A stretch of 31,009 bases of DNA from a virus (taxonomy: Duplodnaviria; Heunggongvirae; Uroviricota; Caudoviricetes), in IMG/VR virus record IMGVR_UViG_3300032117_000012; one strand, 5' to 3'. Of this stretch, positions 2,457 to 12,499 are shown piece after piece. Under the pieces are notes generated by a model. That model had not been told where the DNA came from and ran no database searches. It saw only the letters and a list, made by a program, of their open reading frames with translations. Both the position numbers and the translations under genes were made by a program. How positions within the stretch are numbered: position 1 is the stretch's first letter; each line of letters starts with the position of its first letter.

Positions 2457-3275
2457 ATGAAATCGTTCAAATCATTTATCAAATCATTTATCAAAAAAGC
2501 TATCTTAATAACTGCTGTGCCTACCCATGGCAAGCATGCCCAAGAAAAGCCACCAATTATAACGGCAGAACCTGTTCATGGTAAACATGCTATAAAAGAA
2601 GACAATGACGCTTATTATGATTGGAATTACCATAACGATAATAGTCATCTTGGCAAAGATACACAAGACGTTCATAATAAAATAAATCTATCTACGAATC
2701 AATTTAAAAAGAAACATGGATCAGCTAGTGTCGAACATCTCCATAATTATTCAGCATTTAGTCAAGATACTAATAGACACCTCATTCATAAAGCTGTAGG
2801 AGGAAAATCCCCCTTTGAAAATAATCTTGGACTGGATCCTGTCAAAAGAGAATCCAATGCTAAAGATATGGTTCATGGAGTTGATCATGCATTAAAAAAT
2901 TCCAAACTTGACCATGATTTACATGTGTATCATGGAACTAATACATGGCACCCCGGAGAAGAATCGGCTAAACATTCAGAAGGTATAGTGCATTTACCTA
3001 CATATTTATCAACTTCGATTAGTAAATCTGTAGGTGTTGATTATACTCATCCACATACTAAATTAGAAAATAAAGGTCATCATATTCTCCATATTCACCT
3101 CAAAAAAGGTCAACATGGGGCATATCTTGGTAACAATTCTTGTTTTGATGGAGAACATGAATTTCTGATGCCAAGAGATACAAAATTAAAGATTCATCCA
3201 GAACCAACTAAACTTAAATATGATGGTAATGATTTACATGTATGGCATGCACACGTAGTAGACAACGAGGAATAA
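2457..3275 (+). CDS. ADP-ribosyltransferase (VIP2/Alt-like exoenzyme fold), His-rich, probable virion-internal protein
   Basis: LHVYHG..YLSTS..EHEFLMPR resembles the R-STS-ExE signature with His in place of Arg. Confidence 0.8.
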   Translation: MKSFKSFIKSFIKKAILITAVPTHGKHAQEKPPIITAEPVHGKHAIKEDNDAYYDWNYHNDNSHLGKDTQDVHNKINLSTNQFKKKHGSASVEHLHNYSAFSQDTNRHLIHKAVGGKSPFENNLGLDPVKRESNAKDMVHGVDHALKNSKLDHDLHVYHGTNTWHPGEESAKHSEGIVHLPTYLSTSISKSVGVDYTHPHTKLENKGHHILHIHLKKGQHGAYLGNNSCFDGEHEFLMPRDTKLKIHPEPTKLKYDGNDLHVWHAHVVDNEE

Positions 3276-3277
3276 AT

Positions 3278-4150
3278 ATGAAGAATTTTAAAGATTACAT
3301 GGTAGCTAATGAATTTGATGGTATTCCATTAATGCCAATTCCTACTCACGGAAAACATTCCATCCCATCTGATTCGGAAGAAGATGATAAAATACCGATG
3401 ATACCTGATATGGTACACGGTAAGCATTCATTTAAAGAAGAAAATGAGCATAATTTTCCTCCTGTCACAAAATCGGCAGCATGGTCTAGCCATAGCAATA
3501 ATGAAAATTCTCATTTAGGAAACAATGTAGAAGAGGTGCATCAAAAATTAGACATGCCTCGTGAAAAATTCGAATCGACTCCCTCATATGACCACGTACA
3601 TAATTATACTTGTAGCTCTAATAGATTAAATAAAAATCTTATTAAAAAAGCTAAAGGAATGGATCCATTTAAAAGTGAAAAATGGGAAGACTCTGGTGTT
3701 AGACGAGATAAAAGACATCTAAAACAAGTTCATAACGAAAAAGTAAAGGACATAGACGAAGCATTAAAACATCATACTCTTGACCATGATTTACATGTAT
3801 ACCATGGAACAGACGCTTTTAATCCAGATGAATTAGCCAAACAACATCCACAAAGAAAAATTAAATCAGCTGCATATATGTCAACATCTATCGACAAAGA
3901 GAAAGCTATGGGGTTTGCTGGTAAAGAGCCGGGAAATGCGGAACCATATCAGAGTGCCCATAGTGATTCCCATATTCTGCACGTTCATCTCAAAAAAGGA
4001 CAACATGGAATGTATTTGGGTAGTCATAGTAATTTTGAAAAAGAAAAAGAATTTCTACTTCCTAGAAATACCACAATGAAAGTTCATCCAGAGCCAACTG
4101 TTATGGATAACGGAGTGAAGGTATGGCATGCACATGTGGTAGGGCGTTAA
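3278..4150 (+). CDS. ADP-ribosyltransferase paralog 2, His-rich
   Basis: LHVYHG..YMSTS..EKEFLLPR; start MKNFKDYM at 3278 after GAGG; shares DHDLHVYHGT, HLKKGQHG, HPEPT and VWHAHVV with the upstream paralog. Confidence 0.8.
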   Translation: MKNFKDYMVANEFDGIPLMPIPTHGKHSIPSDSEEDDKIPMIPDMVHGKHSFKEENEHNFPPVTKSAAWSSHSNNENSHLGNNVEEVHQKLDMPREKFESTPSYDHVHNYTCSSNRLNKNLIKKAKGMDPFKSEKWEDSGVRRDKRHLKQVHNEKVKDIDEALKHHTLDHDLHVYHGTDAFNPDELAKQHPQRKIKSAAYMSTSIDKEKAMGFAGKEPGNAEPYQSAHSDSHILHVHLKKGQHGMYLGSHSNFEKEKEFLLPRNTTMKVHPEPTVMDNGVKVWHAHVVGR

Positions 4151-7374: not shown

Positions 7375-7726
7375 AGGATGATATGGTAGGAAAAATAATC
7401 AAACCGGAATTCTATTAAATTTAACTGATGGTGGAGATGGCAATCATGGTCAGGTCCACACCTTAGAACGTAGGGAAAAACAATCAAAATTTATAAAGAA
7501 TAATAATCCATCTTTTGATCCAAAGGTTAAACAAAAATTAACCAATAAAGACTATATGAAAACTATAGAATATAAGCAAAAAATGAGTATACGCAAAAAA
7601 GGAACTATTTCCAAAACGAAAAGAAAAATAATATATAAAGATAAAGTATATTATGGATGGTCCGAATTTACAAAATTAACTGGAATTTCCAGATATTCTT
7701 TCAATAAATTTCTTCAAATGTCTTGA
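7372..7726 (+). pseudogene. 5'-truncated GIY-YIG (Seg-like) homing endonuclease remnant
   Basis: Startless frame 7382-7726 reads YGRKNNQTGILLNLTDGGDG..HTLERREKQS.. (NUMOD3-like); preceded by in-frame TGA and a frameshift. Confidence 0.7.
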
Positions 7727-8107
7727 ACTTATTCTAACAGTACACCAATCATTGAAATATTCGTTAGAGATTATAGCATCTCTAACGAATATTTCTTTTG
7801 TTTCTAGATAATTACACTCAGAAACAGAATAACACAGATGTAGTATTCGTCTATTAAATTCTTCCTTACCATAATTATCGACTGCCGCCAATAAAGCTGG
7901 TGAAGAGCCGTAATAATCTTTCCAATCAGATTCTTTTCTTATCTTCTTTTTTACACCTTTTACCTGTTTGATTCCAGCAGCTGTAAAAAATTTTCTACCG
8001 ATATACATTTTTCCTGTAGTAGGGTGAGTAATCAAATAAACAAACCCATACGGTTGAGGTGAATAATCTTCCAAATTAAATTCATGACCTTTATAATACC
8101 AAGTCAT
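7676..8107 (-). CDS. GIY-YIG family endonuclease
   Basis: GFVYLIT..GKMYIG..ESDWKDYYGSS..E..YFN. Confidence 0.8.
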   Translation of the reverse strand: MTWYYKGHEFNLEDYSPQPYGFVYLITHPTTGKMYIGRKFFTAAGIKQVKGVKKKIRKESDWKDYYGSSPALLAAVDNYGKEEFNRRILHLCYSVSECNYLETKEIFVRDAIISNEYFNDWCTVRISSRHLKKFIERISGNSS

Positions 8108-8938: not shown

Positions 8939-9115
8939 TTATTCTCCTATCCATTTAATCTGATTTAAAGGAAGGATTTTAATTTCTTCTTCCCCCTTAT
9001 CATTCATTAATACAAATCTAACTCGGGATGAATTGGTAAAATTCTGATATTCAACGACATTCCAAATTTTACCCGAATCCTCCCAATTATCATTATCTAT
9101 CCTTATTTGCTTCAT
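8939..9115 (-). CDS. 58-aa hypothetical protein (not in ORF track)
   Basis: MKQIRIDNDNWEDSGKIWNVV..; ATGA overlap with the nrdJ stop. Confidence 0.65.
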   Translation of the reverse strand: MKQIRIDNDNWEDSGKIWNVVEYQNFTNSSRVRFVLMNDKGEEEIKILPLNQIKWIGE

Positions 9116-10962
9116 ATTTCACATCCTCCTCCTGCACAAGCTGCCTGTTCAGATAATTTGGTGTCATCATAATCCTCAACAACCTGCGTAAGATCTATAT
9201 TATGAATATGTTTCACCATATCATTAAACTGGTCCTCTGTTATATCTTCAAATGGAGCCTGAATATAAGATCCTCCATCATAAGGAAGAACAGAAATGCC
9301 ATTATATACTGTTCTATTATTCCACATCCAAACACCACATCTACCCCATTCACTCGGCTTTAATGAAATAGTGCAAGATACATTATTATAATTAGGTCCG
9401 CTACGGTGGCCTGTCTGCACCCATTCTAAATTGAACTTGGCAACTCTCTTAAGTAGCGACATAAAGCTTTCAGTACGAATTATAGCACCAGATGGAGCCT
9501 TTTGAGGAAACATCATCATGGCCTCTAAATGAGGTTTAAAATGGCAATCTTCGATAAGATCAGGAAGATTATTTACCATATATTCATATAAGGCTTCATT
9601 TTTACCAACCCGCATTCTACGGATATAGAAATCATTATGCCACCCATGAATACCAGAAGATGATCCCAACACACAGCTAGTTGATCCAGCTGGTTTTTCT
9701 GTAGTAGATCTAGCAGCAGGATTAATGCCTATTCTCTTTGCGAGAGATTCATTTTCTGCCATGACAATAGCAGCCGCTTCTTGCAAATTCAATTTTGTTA
9801 TTTTATTTGATGCAATACCAGTAAAAGATACTCCAATTAATGCATCTCGTTCAGTAACTTCTTTCCAAATAGGACGAAGATAATGAAGATCAGTATATGA
9901 AGCTTGTAATGTACCGATAAACGCCGCAGCTTTTACTCTAGAATTTAATTCTTCTTGAGTATCGCAATCACTTGCATTCACCTCTACGAGGTTACAAAAT
10001 TGATATGATGCCAGAGAAATTTCTCCACATGGATTCGTGCCATATTCTAGATCATTTGTCCATATAATTCCGGGCTCGCCTGCACCAGATTCTTCAACTT
10101 TTTTCCAAATATCAAAGAACATTTCTTCAGTTGTAGACTCTCGTAACAAGATAACACTATTGTTAGCACGACCTCTTTGAGGATTGGTTTCCCACCATAA
10201 TCCCGATTTACTAGACATCATATCAAGGTCATCTGGTGAAAAAAGTGCAATCATTGCAGCTCTACGAATACCACCAGCTAAAACTGCATCTGCAATAAAA
10301 CAAAGAATATCATGAGCTTCTAAAGTTGTAAGTTTTCTACCAATGGCAGCATTCATAATTGCTCTAATTTGTTCAATACAAATTCGTAATGGATCTGGTC
10401 CGGGAGCTTTGCCACCAGAGGTTACTAATCTAGCACCTTTTTGCCTAATGTCTCTGTAATCAAAGATTGGATCAGACTTTCCCTCATAATAAGATCGTAC
10501 CAAGACTTTGATCGCATCTGCCCAGCCTTCGATAGAGTCACCTACAAGAAATCTTCTAGTTTTTTCTTTTGGACCTTTAATTATAGGTAATTTACCTATA
10601 TGGTGCTTTTGAACAGAATATCCTACACCCGTTCCAGATAGCAAAAGAAACATTGTTTCTGGAAACGCATCTAATGAGTCGATAGGAAGAAATGAGCAAT
10701 TAAAAATACGGGTATTAGAAAGTTCGATAGGACGACCTGCAAATTGCATAGAACGCATTGAAGGCAAGACTTTTTTAGTAAGAACGAAATTTTTATATAC
10801 TTTCTTAATTTCTGGTGTCAACATGGGGAATTTTTTAATATGCATTTGCATATTACGATCACATAATTCTGCCCATGTTTCTCTTCGTTTTAATTCTGGT
10901 ATATATTTGGCATACTTAGAAAAAATTGTGACTTGACTTAAAACTTCTTGTGTAGTGTCCAT
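9112..10962 (-). CDS. nrdJ: class II (adenosylcobalamin-dependent) ribonucleotide reductase, monomeric RTPR-like
   Basis: FNCS, GTGVGYSV, GGIRRAAMI, TNPCGEI, KPAGSTS, C-terminal CAGGGC; 616 aa, with no NrdB in the window. Confidence 0.88.
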   Translation of the reverse strand: MDTTQEVLSQVTIFSKYAKYIPELKRRETWAELCDRNMQMHIKKFPMLTPEIKKVYKNFVLTKKVLPSMRSMQFAGRPIELSNTRIFNCSFLPIDSLDAFPETMFLLLSGTGVGYSVQKHHIGKLPIIKGPKEKTRRFLVGDSIEGWADAIKVLVRSYYEGKSDPIFDYRDIRQKGARLVTSGGKAPGPDPLRICIEQIRAIMNAAIGRKLTTLEAHDILCFIADAVLAGGIRRAAMIALFSPDDLDMMSSKSGLWWETNPQRGRANNSVILLRESTTEEMFFDIWKKVEESGAGEPGIIWTNDLEYGTNPCGEISLASYQFCNLVEVNASDCDTQEELNSRVKAAAFIGTLQASYTDLHYLRPIWKEVTERDALIGVSFTGIASNKITKLNLQEAAAIVMAENESLAKRIGINPAARSTTEKPAGSTSCVLGSSSGIHGWHNDFYIRRMRVGKNEALYEYMVNNLPDLIEDCHFKPHLEAMMMFPQKAPSGAIIRTESFMSLLKRVAKFNLEWVQTGHRSGPNYNNVSCTISLKPSEWGRCGVWMWNNRTVYNGISVLPYDGGSYIQAPFEDITEDQFNDMVKHIHNIDLTQVVEDYDDTKLSEQAACAGGGCEI

Positions 10963-10978
10963 GTAAGAGATTCCAATA

Positions 10979-11185
10979 TTATAATGTTGGTATAAGAAAT
11001 TGTTTGATGCCTAACCAAATTTCCCTACTAGCTTCACTTAATTCCATACCTTCTGGGATAGTTACTTCCCCTGTATCAGTATCGATACTAATTCCACTTT
11101 TATGAAATTTGATATTATGAAAATGGGTATCATTGAAAGTTTTAGCATACTCATTTAAATAAGGCTGTACTATTATATCTTTCAC
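10979..11185 (-). CDS. hypothetical protein
   Basis: GTG start overlapping the thyA stop (GTGA); 68 aa. Confidence 0.6.
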
Positions 11186-12174
11186 TTGGATACCTTGGCT
11201 TTTATGGCAGGATGAGGATCGTAATCTTCTACTTGGATATCGCTCCAAATAAGATCGTAGATTCCTTTATCACTAGGTATATAGATGTTAGGAAAGGGTG
11301 TAGGATGTCTTAAAAGCTGTTTTTTTGCCTGTTCAAGATGATTTGCGTAAAGATGTAAATCACCAAATGTATGAACAAATTCTCCTACCTCTAACCCTAC
11401 CTCATTAGCGATTAAATGGACTAGGAGGGCGTATGAAGCTATATTGAATGGTACACCTAGGAATATGTCAGCCGACCTTTGATATAGTTGACAGGAGAGC
11501 TTTCCGTCTTGTACGAAAAATTGAAAAAGACAATGACACGGCGGTAATGCCATTTCATCAATTTGAGCTGGGTTCCATGCTGTCACAACATGTCGTCTGG
11601 AATAAGGATCTTTTTTAAGGTTCGCAATCAAATCTTTAATCTGATCAAATTTCAGTAAAACTTTAACAGGACCACCCGGACCTAATCCTAGTCCACGCAT
11701 TCCCCACCCTTCCCATTTTCGCCATTGGGCACCATATACCGGTCCTAACTCACCATTTTCATCTGCCCATTCATCCCAAATACGGATACCTTGATCCTGT
11801 AAAGGTTTAATATTAGTGGATCCAGATAAAAACCATAAAAGTTCACCGAACACAGATTTAATATGAATTTTCTTGGTTGTTAATAATGGAAATCCAGCAG
11901 ATAGATCAAACCTAATTTGTCGGCCAAATACACCATATGTTCCACCATTTCTACCTTCTCGATATACTCCATTATCAACCACATCTTTCAAAATATCCAA
12001 ATATTGATATTCTCCGTGATCTAATACTAACTGAGAATCGCTAAAAATATGTTCCCATTTATCTTTGTGTTTTACAATACACTTATCTTCAGCTTCATAT
12101 ACTGCACACACAGTTCCTACAAACGGATATCCGGTTATTTTGCGAACTTTATCACCAATTTTAAATTTACTCAC
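11182..12174 (-). CDS. thyA: thymidylate synthase with N-terminal SH3/R67-DHFR(DfrB)-like domain
   Basis: [50 protein letters not shown] (Asn, dUMP type); about 52-aa extra N-terminal domain; probable GTG start at 12174. Confidence 0.92.
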
Positions 12175-12499
12175 CAGTAGAAATCCTATCAAACATTACA
12201 GAGTTATGAGATCCTTTTATTTCTCTAAAGGAATATGACGAAGAAGAATCACCGATATTACATTTCGTAACAGTAAGTTTATCTCCGATATTAATACCGT
12301 TACTCTCCACATTAAGTTTTTGGTACGGATAGCCATGAAATCCATTATATTGGACAACTTCTCCCTGTTGTGCCCAATTAGCCTTGGCGTCTTCTACTGA
12401 GAGAATAGGCGTACATACGCCATTTTTAATCCTACCATAATCAGAAATATATCCTAATTTCTCTAGTTCATCAAATCCTTCATAACTCAATTCTGCCAT
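12167..12499 (-). CDS. hypothetical protein
   Basis: Start MAELS after AAGG; stop overlaps the thyA start. Confidence 0.7.

Follow-up and report, generated by a model that had tools for sequence, protein, structure and literature searches.

A thyA gene of a T4-like phage that probably encodes a dihydrofolate reductase-thymidylate synthase with a DfrB-like domain

What is the function of the roughly 50 residues that precede thymidylate synthase (TS, ThyA) in the thyA product of IMG/VR virus record IMGVR_UViG_3300032117_000012, a 31,009-nucleotide stretch of tailed-phage DNA (Caudoviricetes) that is called the window below? Before 2025, DfrB proteins had been noted mainly as plasmid-borne oddities that confer trimethoprim resistance and whose origin was unclear. 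FolA-type dihydrofolate reductase-thymidylate synthases (DHFR-TS) occur as single chains in protozoa, plants, and some eukaryotic viruses, and in phage T4, frd and td are neighboring genes. A reading of the window's sequence only had proposed that the extra residues are an R67/DfrB-like SH3 domain, making the protein a possible bifunctional DHFR-TS on the type II fold. Our analysis indicates that the gene probably encodes a phage DfrB-TS, in which a cluster II-like DfrB-type SH3 domain, a 4-residue linker, and a complete ThyA work together as a DHFR-TS. The gene and its parts are located as follows.

11182..12174, minus strand: fused thyA, 330 codons plus stop, encoding the DfrB-like domain, a short linker, and ThyA
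12172..12174, minus strand: start codon GTG, read from the sequence
12184..12187, minus strand: Shine-Dalgarno-like AGGA, 9 nucleotides upstream of the GTG, read from the sequence
12022..12174, minus strand: DfrB-like SH3 domain, residues 1-51, from the AlphaFold2 (AF2) model, hhalign, the PDB profile search, and the BFVD fold search
12139..12141, minus strand: Lys12, equivalent to R67 Lys32, the anchor for the anionic tails of NADPH and dihydrofolate, from alignment to R67
12043..12054, minus strand: B4-strand motif E41-H42-I43-F44, the equivalent of the pore-lining V66-Q67-I68-Y69 of R67, from alignment to LHIY and VQIY
12010..12021, minus strand: linker D52-H53-G54-E55 from the barrel to ThyA helix 1, from the family alignment and the full-length model
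11185..12009, minus strand: ThyA catalytic domain, residues 56-330, from PF00303 and invariant columns

The longest thyA open reading frame (11182..12192, minus strand) opens at a TTG, and the GTG at 12172-12174 is the likely start of the fused gene. The GTG was preferred because of the spacing of the AGGA, its 8-nucleotide overlap with the stop of the upstream Y07B-like gene (TAA, 12167-12169), the JGI gene calls, which give the identical 330-residue product on three other, independent contigs, and the homologue starts, as MSK/MSS-F begins at the GTG position in 11 of the 16 homologues of the family alignment. Counted from this GTG, Pfam Thymidylat_synt (PF00303) covers residues 57-329 with an E value of 1.8e-110 and 368.7 bits (the match begins at residue 63 of the TTG form); therefore, residues 1-55 are extra. 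The approximately 52 additional residues noticed earlier (12019-12174, residues 1-52 from the GTG) thus correspond to a domain of about 51 residues followed by the 4-residue linker, of which D52 and E55 are invariant. The ThyA part retains its catalytic residues, with R75, R193/R194, C213-H214, R233-S234, D236, N244, H274, and Y276 invariant in the family alignment; we take these to map to R21, R126/R127, C146, R166, N177, H207, and Y209 of Escherichia coli ThyA. A Gly-rich insertion is present at window positions 11650-11720 (minus strand; ThyA residues ~153-175), in the loop whose length differs from homologue to homologue.

Searching with words from residues 1-56 retrieved 16 clusters including the window's own protein, all of them ThyA proteins of 311-333 amino acids except one of 507 amino acids. 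Across these 16 homologues, 26 of the 56 N-terminal columns are invariant. The mean pairwise identity was higher in the domain (78%) than in the ThyA body (65%), with the domain ahead in 109 of 120 pairs, a difference that is inflated because the homologues were fetched by N-terminal words. The family alignment placed the most variable part in the B2-B3 hairpin (loop L2), whereas strand B1 (KVRK) and loop L1 were 95% conserved and the B4 strand EHIFS was invariant, with EHIF present in 16 of 16 sequences at zero entropy. This family is referred to below as the EHIF type.

A related fusion was found in cultured phages. Among 50,697 phage records, the best matches to the ThyA protein came from the Rhizobium phages RHEph10, RHph_N1_10, N1_15, and N2_6, and they aligned from residue 3-8 onward. 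The annotated thyA of RHEph10 and RHph_N1_10 starts at a downstream ATG, yet the frame is open upstream and encodes an unannotated domain of about 57 residues with the motif LHIY (RHEph10, L001:3983-4153, which is JX483881.1 61483-61653; RHph_N1_10, L002:3998-4168). A profile search of the RHEph10 genome located the domain inside a 386-codon open frame, and tblastn placed it likewise upstream of the annotated thyA start in N1_15 and N2_6. Between RHEph10 and N1_10, the unannotated stretch differs by 14 synonymous versus 8 non-synonymous codon changes, with 7, 5, and 20 nucleotide differences at the first, second, and third codon positions, and a TTG is preceded by AAGGA in both genomes. Judged from these sequences, the annotated thyA starts of these Rhizobium phages lie too far downstream.

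The ATG picked by the annotators in RHEph10 and RHph_N1_10 might suggest that the extension is untranslated, ThyA being started downstream and the upstream frame being open by chance. This explanation is hardly credible for the window's gene. No ATG occurs between the GTG and the ThyA core, and the later TTG and GTG codons are found only inside the conserved ThyA helix 1. The invariant N-terminal columns, the excess of synonymous changes in the Rhizobium phage stretch, and the AAGGA before its TTG all argue for translation as well.

The AF2 model of the domain is a five-stranded SH3-like barrel with a pLDDT of 83.7, the strands comprising residues 9-12 (B1), 19-26 (B2), 31-36 (B3), 41-45 (B4), and 49-51 (B5). 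In the full-length AF2 model (mean pLDDT 90.0, pTM 0.86), the domain scored about 84-92, and the ThyA helix began at residue 56. Which family of SH3-like barrels it belongs to was not evident from the domain sequence alone. Pfam DHFR_2 (PF06442) reached 11.9 bits against a cut-off of 25 on the single sequence (E 0.21), and it matched 6 of the 16 homologues with a best E of 0.014; the only other Pfam family was EF-Ts_N, in 2 of 16. A phmmer search of PDB with the domain returned a chance PvuII match only, and tblastn of the 56 N-terminal residues against cultured phages gave nothing at E up to 0.1. With a narrow EHIF-family profile, PDB searches gave R67 an E of 0.085 and the KOW domains of Spt5, NusG, and L24 E values of 0.006-1, thus without separation. 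Monomer fold searches in PDB tied Tudor (PHF19, Z 9.2), KOW, and R67 (1vie, Z 8.4), the R67 chain 1vie_A superposing with a root-mean-square deviation of 1.8 Å over 53 residues at about 23% identity. The sub-threshold DHFR_2 score and the tie among folds count against a DfrB identity, and the tie as well as the similar profile scores of KOW and R67 would suit a generic SH3-like barrel with a KOW- or Tudor-like role in nucleic-acid or protein binding, for example, autoregulation on thyA mRNA.

Intermediate sequences separated these families. An IMG/VR scan with the pattern GD[KR]VRK[IV][TK] recovered standalone phage proteins of two kinds. Bona fide DfrB proteins, with SVQIYP, scored 71-84 bits with DHFR_2; for proteins of an intermediate LHIY type, DHFR_2 was the top Pfam match at 16-22 bits. 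Profile-profile comparison by hhalign aligned the EHIF family with the LHIY group over 52 columns, HIF falling on HIY (probability 98.5, P 2.7e-15), and with the DfrB group over 28 columns of the N-terminal half (probability 98.0); the LHIY and DfrB groups aligned over 57 columns with LHIY on VQIY (probability 97.9). The pattern scan partly preselects N-terminal similarity, whereas the C-terminal HI-aromatic/QL match and the PDB and BFVD results are unselected. When a combined EHIF and LHIY profile, including no cluster-I DfrB, was searched against PDB, the best match was the Q67H mutant of R67 DHFR at full length (E 3.6e-6); wild-type R67 followed at E 1.7e-4, and the next family, KOW/Spt5, at E 0.085. 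Adding the LHIY-type relatives thus brought the link to R67 beyond chance and set R67 apart from KOW, R67 exceeding every KOW protein in significance by about 500- to 20,000-fold. The best fold match in the viral library BFVD was A0A6J5PTB3 (E 1.6e-4, TM 0.86, 31% identity), and the best among AFDB clusters was the C-terminal domain of a DnaA-domain protein (36% identity); fusions of DfrB to DnaA domains have been reported (PMC12486381).

A generic barrel is therefore very improbable. Besides the separation obtained with the LHIY relatives, no member of the 16 had a Pfam KOW or Tudor match at E up to 10, whereas DHFR_2 recurs among them; in the C-terminal half, HIF falls on HIY and VQIY, and the top BFVD and AFDB matches are DfrB-family proteins. 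Because of the profile-profile comparisons, the PDB search free of cluster I, the top BFVD match, and the invariant equivalent of R67 K32, we consider it very likely that the N-terminal domain is homologous to the R67/DfrB SH3 family. The kinship to PF06442 and R67 that the sequence-only reading had suspected did not show on the single sequence, which stayed below threshold, but it emerged via the LHIY intermediates and the R67 and BFVD matches.

The alignment to R67 specifies what is retained. F24, G27, D28, V30, R31, K32, G35, G40, and Y46 of R67 are identical to F4, G7, D8, V10, R11, K12, G15, G20, and Y26 of the domain, giving 9 identities in 23 columns, and the glycines and tyrosine line up as the earlier reading had noted. 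The K32 equivalent K12, also named in that reading, is found unchanged in all 26 sequences of the EHIF and LHIY types. VQIY (66-69) is replaced in register by EHIF (41-44), in agreement with the earlier alignment, and H42 and I43 are invariant in the same 26 sequences. Within the EHIF family, the equivalent of W38 is an invariant F18, that of W45 is a variable V25, and Y26 at the Y46 position is nearly invariant. The domain thus shares with R67 DHFR/DfrB1 (PDB 1VIE and 2RK1; Q67H, 2P4T) the SH3-like barrel, the GD-VRK-G motif, K32, G40, Y46, and the register of B4, but it has not kept the TPEGY hairpin, W38, W45, or VQIY. Furthermore, R67 is a 78-residue plasmid or integron protein, whereas the window's domain is fused to ThyA.

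An assayed precedent for such a fusion exists. The survey by Lemay-St-Denis et al. (Mol Biol Evol 2025; PMC12486381), in which 386 DfrB homologues were compared and 148 assayed, describes one DfrB-TS fusion, bit-GEM BBD027md-00173_03685, which came from a single-cell genome, was described as bacterial, and belongs to cluster II with the motif LHIY. That protein had a Km for dihydrofolate (DHF) of 28 µM and a kcat of 2.3 per second, its TS activity was also measured, and it ran as a tetramer and octamer in size exclusion (PMC12486381). In the literature searched, the term DfrB-TS occurred in PMC12486381 only, and thymidylate synthase goes unmentioned in the earlier paper PMC9835603. Like the published enzyme, the window's protein joins, in one reading frame, a DfrB SH3 domain at its N terminus to a thymidylate synthase of the ThyA type; the domain is cluster II-like, has the K32 equivalent, and carries His and Ile where R67 has Q67 and I68. 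The window's protein differs in being known from sequence, in belonging to a T4-like phage module, and in carrying EHIF and a hairpin shorter by 7 residues, whereas the LHIY enzyme has both activities measured. The concern that DfrB is tetrameric and ThyA dimeric is answered by the published fusion running as tetramer and octamer; for the domain itself, a complex prediction with four copies of residues 1-56 scored 0.09 (mark, 0.42), which speaks neither for nor against a tetramer. The DfrB homology and the precedent, taken by analogy, support the suggestion that this may be a bifunctional DHFR-TS on the type II fold. The idea of such an enzyme is thus already published (PMC12486381), and new here are the phage clade with the fusion, the acidic residue in the pore motif, and the shorter hairpin.

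Whether the EHIF-type domain reduces DHF depends on features that point in both directions. In the published survey, 18 different B4 motifs were active, and position 32, Lys or Arg, was the most conserved residue of active DfrBs (PMC12486381); the window's domain has a Lys there, K12. Viral cluster II homologues were also reported near thyA, one of them 5 bp away, in genomes without FolA (PMC12486381). Based on the K32 equivalent, the H-I-aromatic motif, the fusion to the DHF-producing enzyme, and the active LHIY and LHIF relatives, we infer that DHF reduction by the EHIF type is rather probable.

Several observations weigh against this. Activity is predicted by a positively charged tunnel, and active motifs are mostly nonpolar/polar/nonpolar/aromatic (PMC12486381); EHIF fits three of these four positions, the first being the acidic E41. 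The EHIF family is 7 residues short in the B2-B3 hairpin relative to R67 and the LHIY type, and "EHIF" is absent from the main text of PMC12486381. DfrB clusters III-V multimerise without DHF reduction, and the authors proposed binding as the ancestral DfrB function (PMC12486381). The nearest assayed xHIF protein, A0A6J5PTB3 (cluster II, LHIF), is tetrameric, trimethoprim-resistant, and DHF-reducing, but it was the poorest catalyst and 'more of a binder than a catalyst', with a Km for DHF of 160 µM and substrate inhibition by NADPH (PMC12486381). This 174-residue protein from an uncultured Caudovirales phage ends in HIF as the window's domain does, but it is not fused to ThyA and has L instead of E at the first motif position.

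These observations would fit a true DfrB homologue that serves as an oligomerisation or ligand-binding module without catalysis. Such a module could bind NADPH or another nucleotide, hold ThyA dimers together as tetramers or octamers, or dock the enzyme into a phage dNTP-synthesis complex. The non-catalytic multimers of clusters III-V, the binder-like xHIF relative, the negative charge of E41 in the pore motif, and the hairpin deletion unique to the EHIF type all suit this main rival explanation, which we nevertheless regard as the unlikelier one. As in active cluster II proteins, neither K12 nor the H-I-aromatic stretch of B4 varies, and the domain is fused to the sole DHF-making enzyme. In addition, LHIY-type relatives are fused or adjacent to thyA in phages without FolA, and the published LHIY fusion is active (PMC12486381).

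The distribution of FolA-type DHFR bears on the same question. As the earlier reading had stated, no FolA-type gene was found in the window: none of its 41 open reading frames of at least 90 amino acids matched DHFR_1 (PF00186), and PF00303 was the only Pfam family that matched the full-length fused frame at E up to 10. Nor was DHFR_1 detected in about 21 kb beyond the window start, which was the extent of the search for frd on overlapping metagenome contigs, or, on a related 164-kb contig, at distances of up to 10 kb from the fused thyA. A FolA gene may lie elsewhere in this incomplete genome, which weakens the argument for a DfrB-type substitute. In other phages, the DfrB-like domain is present and PF00186 was not found in RHEph10, N1_10, Kolga, and Tedan; the domain in N1_10 and Tedan rests on tblastn matches, and the whole genomes of Kolga, RHEph10, and RHph_N1_10 were searched for FolA-type DHFR. 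RHph_I46, the positive control, gave a PF00186 match at E 2e-28 adjoining an unfused thyA, and Phosso has an annotated FolA-type DHFR, likewise adjoining an unfused thyA; no DfrB-like domain was found in either phage. Rhizobium phage X2_30 has thyA, and neither a DfrB-like domain nor a FolA-type DHFR was found in it, indicating that a phage does not strictly need either DHFR, another point against the catalytic interpretation. An 85-amino-acid open reading frame after X2_30 thyA was considered as a DfrB candidate and rejected, as it is not DfrB-like.

If the gene is a DfrB-TS as we favor, the enzyme would work as follows. ThyA dimers would convert dUMP and methylene-tetrahydrofolate to dTMP and DHF, and the four SH3 domains of two ThyA dimers would assemble into a DfrB-type tetramer. 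Its central pore, lined by the EHIF residues of B4, would hold NADPH and DHF, their anionic tails being anchored by Lys12, and would reduce DHF to tetrahydrofolate by proximity catalysis that trimethoprim does not inhibit. The fusion would thereby replace the separate frd and td of T4 in a T4-like phage. FolA-type DHFR-TS and T4 frd plus td carry out the same two consecutive reactions, and in DHFR-TS the DHFR part is also N-terminal to TS; however, the DHFR part of these enzymes has the DHFR_1 fold, which the window's protein lacks, and is monomeric and sensitive to trimethoprim or antifolates.

A bolder possibility, which we consider improbable, is that the EHIF type is a mechanistically distinct DfrB with an improved, channelled DHFR-TS function. 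The glutamate at the first pore-motif position beside His42 and the Lys-rich L3 loop before it (KHKDKW) are invariant or nearly so. They could supply a general acid that has no counterpart in R67, comparable to Asp27 or Glu30 in FolA enzymes, and the rigid 4-residue linker could bring the pore near the ThyA active sites for direct hand-over of DHF. If this were true, such an improved type II DHFR-TS would have evolved in T4-like phages, and the native niche of the fold would be phage dTMP synthesis.

Fusions of both sequence types recur. Eighteen further fused LHIY-type metagenomic clusters of 314-340 amino acids were found, and three other LHIY fusions (P0020, P0022, and P0089) occurred among 1.84 billion representatives. 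Altogether, 16 EHIF-type and at least 20 LHIY-type clusters were seen. No free-standing EHIF-type protein was present among the 1.84 billion representatives, save the 88-amino-acid P0034, in which an EHIF-like domain (WDHIF) is joined directly to the last ~40 ThyA residues and which arose either by deletion or as an assembly chimera. Pelagibacter phage Kolga carries an LHIY-type DfrB-like domain at the C terminus of gp36 (150 amino acids, hypothetical), whose gene ends 4 nucleotides upstream of thyA, gp35 (L016:2701-3943). By its sequence, the gp36/gp35 pair is a split counterpart of the fusion, and it is probably the '5 bp apart' case of PMC12486381. Kolga and the Rhizobium phages thus resemble the window in having an LHIY-type DfrB-like domain adjacent to thyA (Kolga) or fused to it in frame (Rhizobium phages), but they differ in the LHIY motif, the long hairpin, and the phage lineage. 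A tree of 55 ThyA-body sequences had poor resolution (28 of its 52 forks were open, and several branches were very long) and left undecided whether the EHIF and LHIY fusions have a single origin. P0080 (442 amino acids), an apparent full-length profile match, was discarded because its sequence reads as a FolA-type DHFR-TS.

The 507-amino-acid member of the EHIF family (P0008, from a Logan contig of 58 kb) has about 190 additional residues inserted in frame into the variable surface loop of ThyA (alignment columns ~170-355). The insertion has motifs reminiscent of a homing-endonuclease DNA-binding domain and may thus be intein-like or derive from an endonuclease. A group I intron is a known feature of T4 td.

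The fusion recurs as a strongly conserved element of phage nucleotide metabolism, in T4-like phages that are uncultured and, without annotation, in Rhizobium phages that are cultured; it exists in an LHIY and an EHIF sequence type. These findings support the view that recycling folate for phage dTMP synthesis is a native role of the DfrB fold and that phages form an environmental reservoir of trimethoprim-insensitive DHFR domains. Cultured phages are now at hand for genetic tests of the fusion, and the natural acidic-pore variant offers a test of the permissiveness of the DfrB pore. Moreover, a systematic annotation error is flagged, as choosing a downstream ATG over the TTG or GTG start hides the domain.

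The gene is located in a T4-like replication and nucleotide module that makes up the window, comprising genes for a sliding clamp, clamp loader, RegA, family B DNA polymerase, UvsX, DnaB-like helicase, primase, the Y07B-like protein, the fused thyA, a B12-type ribonucleotide reductase, and dCMP deaminase. Compared with the T4 gene order, the fusion occupies the functional place of frd and td.

Other genes of the window and of related contigs were also recorded. Directly downstream of thyA, positions 9112-10962 (minus strand) encode the B12-type (class II-like) ribonucleotide reductase of 616 amino acids; the equivalent place on the related 164-kb contig (L021:11008-14826) holds the class Ia genes NrdA and NrdB, which looks like a swap of ribonucleotide reductase class between related T4-like phages. 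At L021:1-821 on that T4-like contig, about 10 kb from the fused thyA, genes for PTPS (6-pyruvoyl-tetrahydropterin synthase family) and GTP cyclohydrolase I were found; both belong to pterin or 7-deazaguanine pathways and might bear on the supply of folate or pterin. Within the nucleotide-metabolism block, a gene for a SegE-like GIY-YIG homing endonuclease (7676-8107, minus strand; E 1.7e-33) adjoins the dCMP deaminase gene, and another SegE-like gene, with a fainter match, is found ~3 kb outside the window, past its start (L019:13542-14180). Finally, two tandem ADP-ribosyltransferase (ADPrib_exo_Tox) paralogues occupy 2457-4150 on the plus strand, opposite to most genes of the window.

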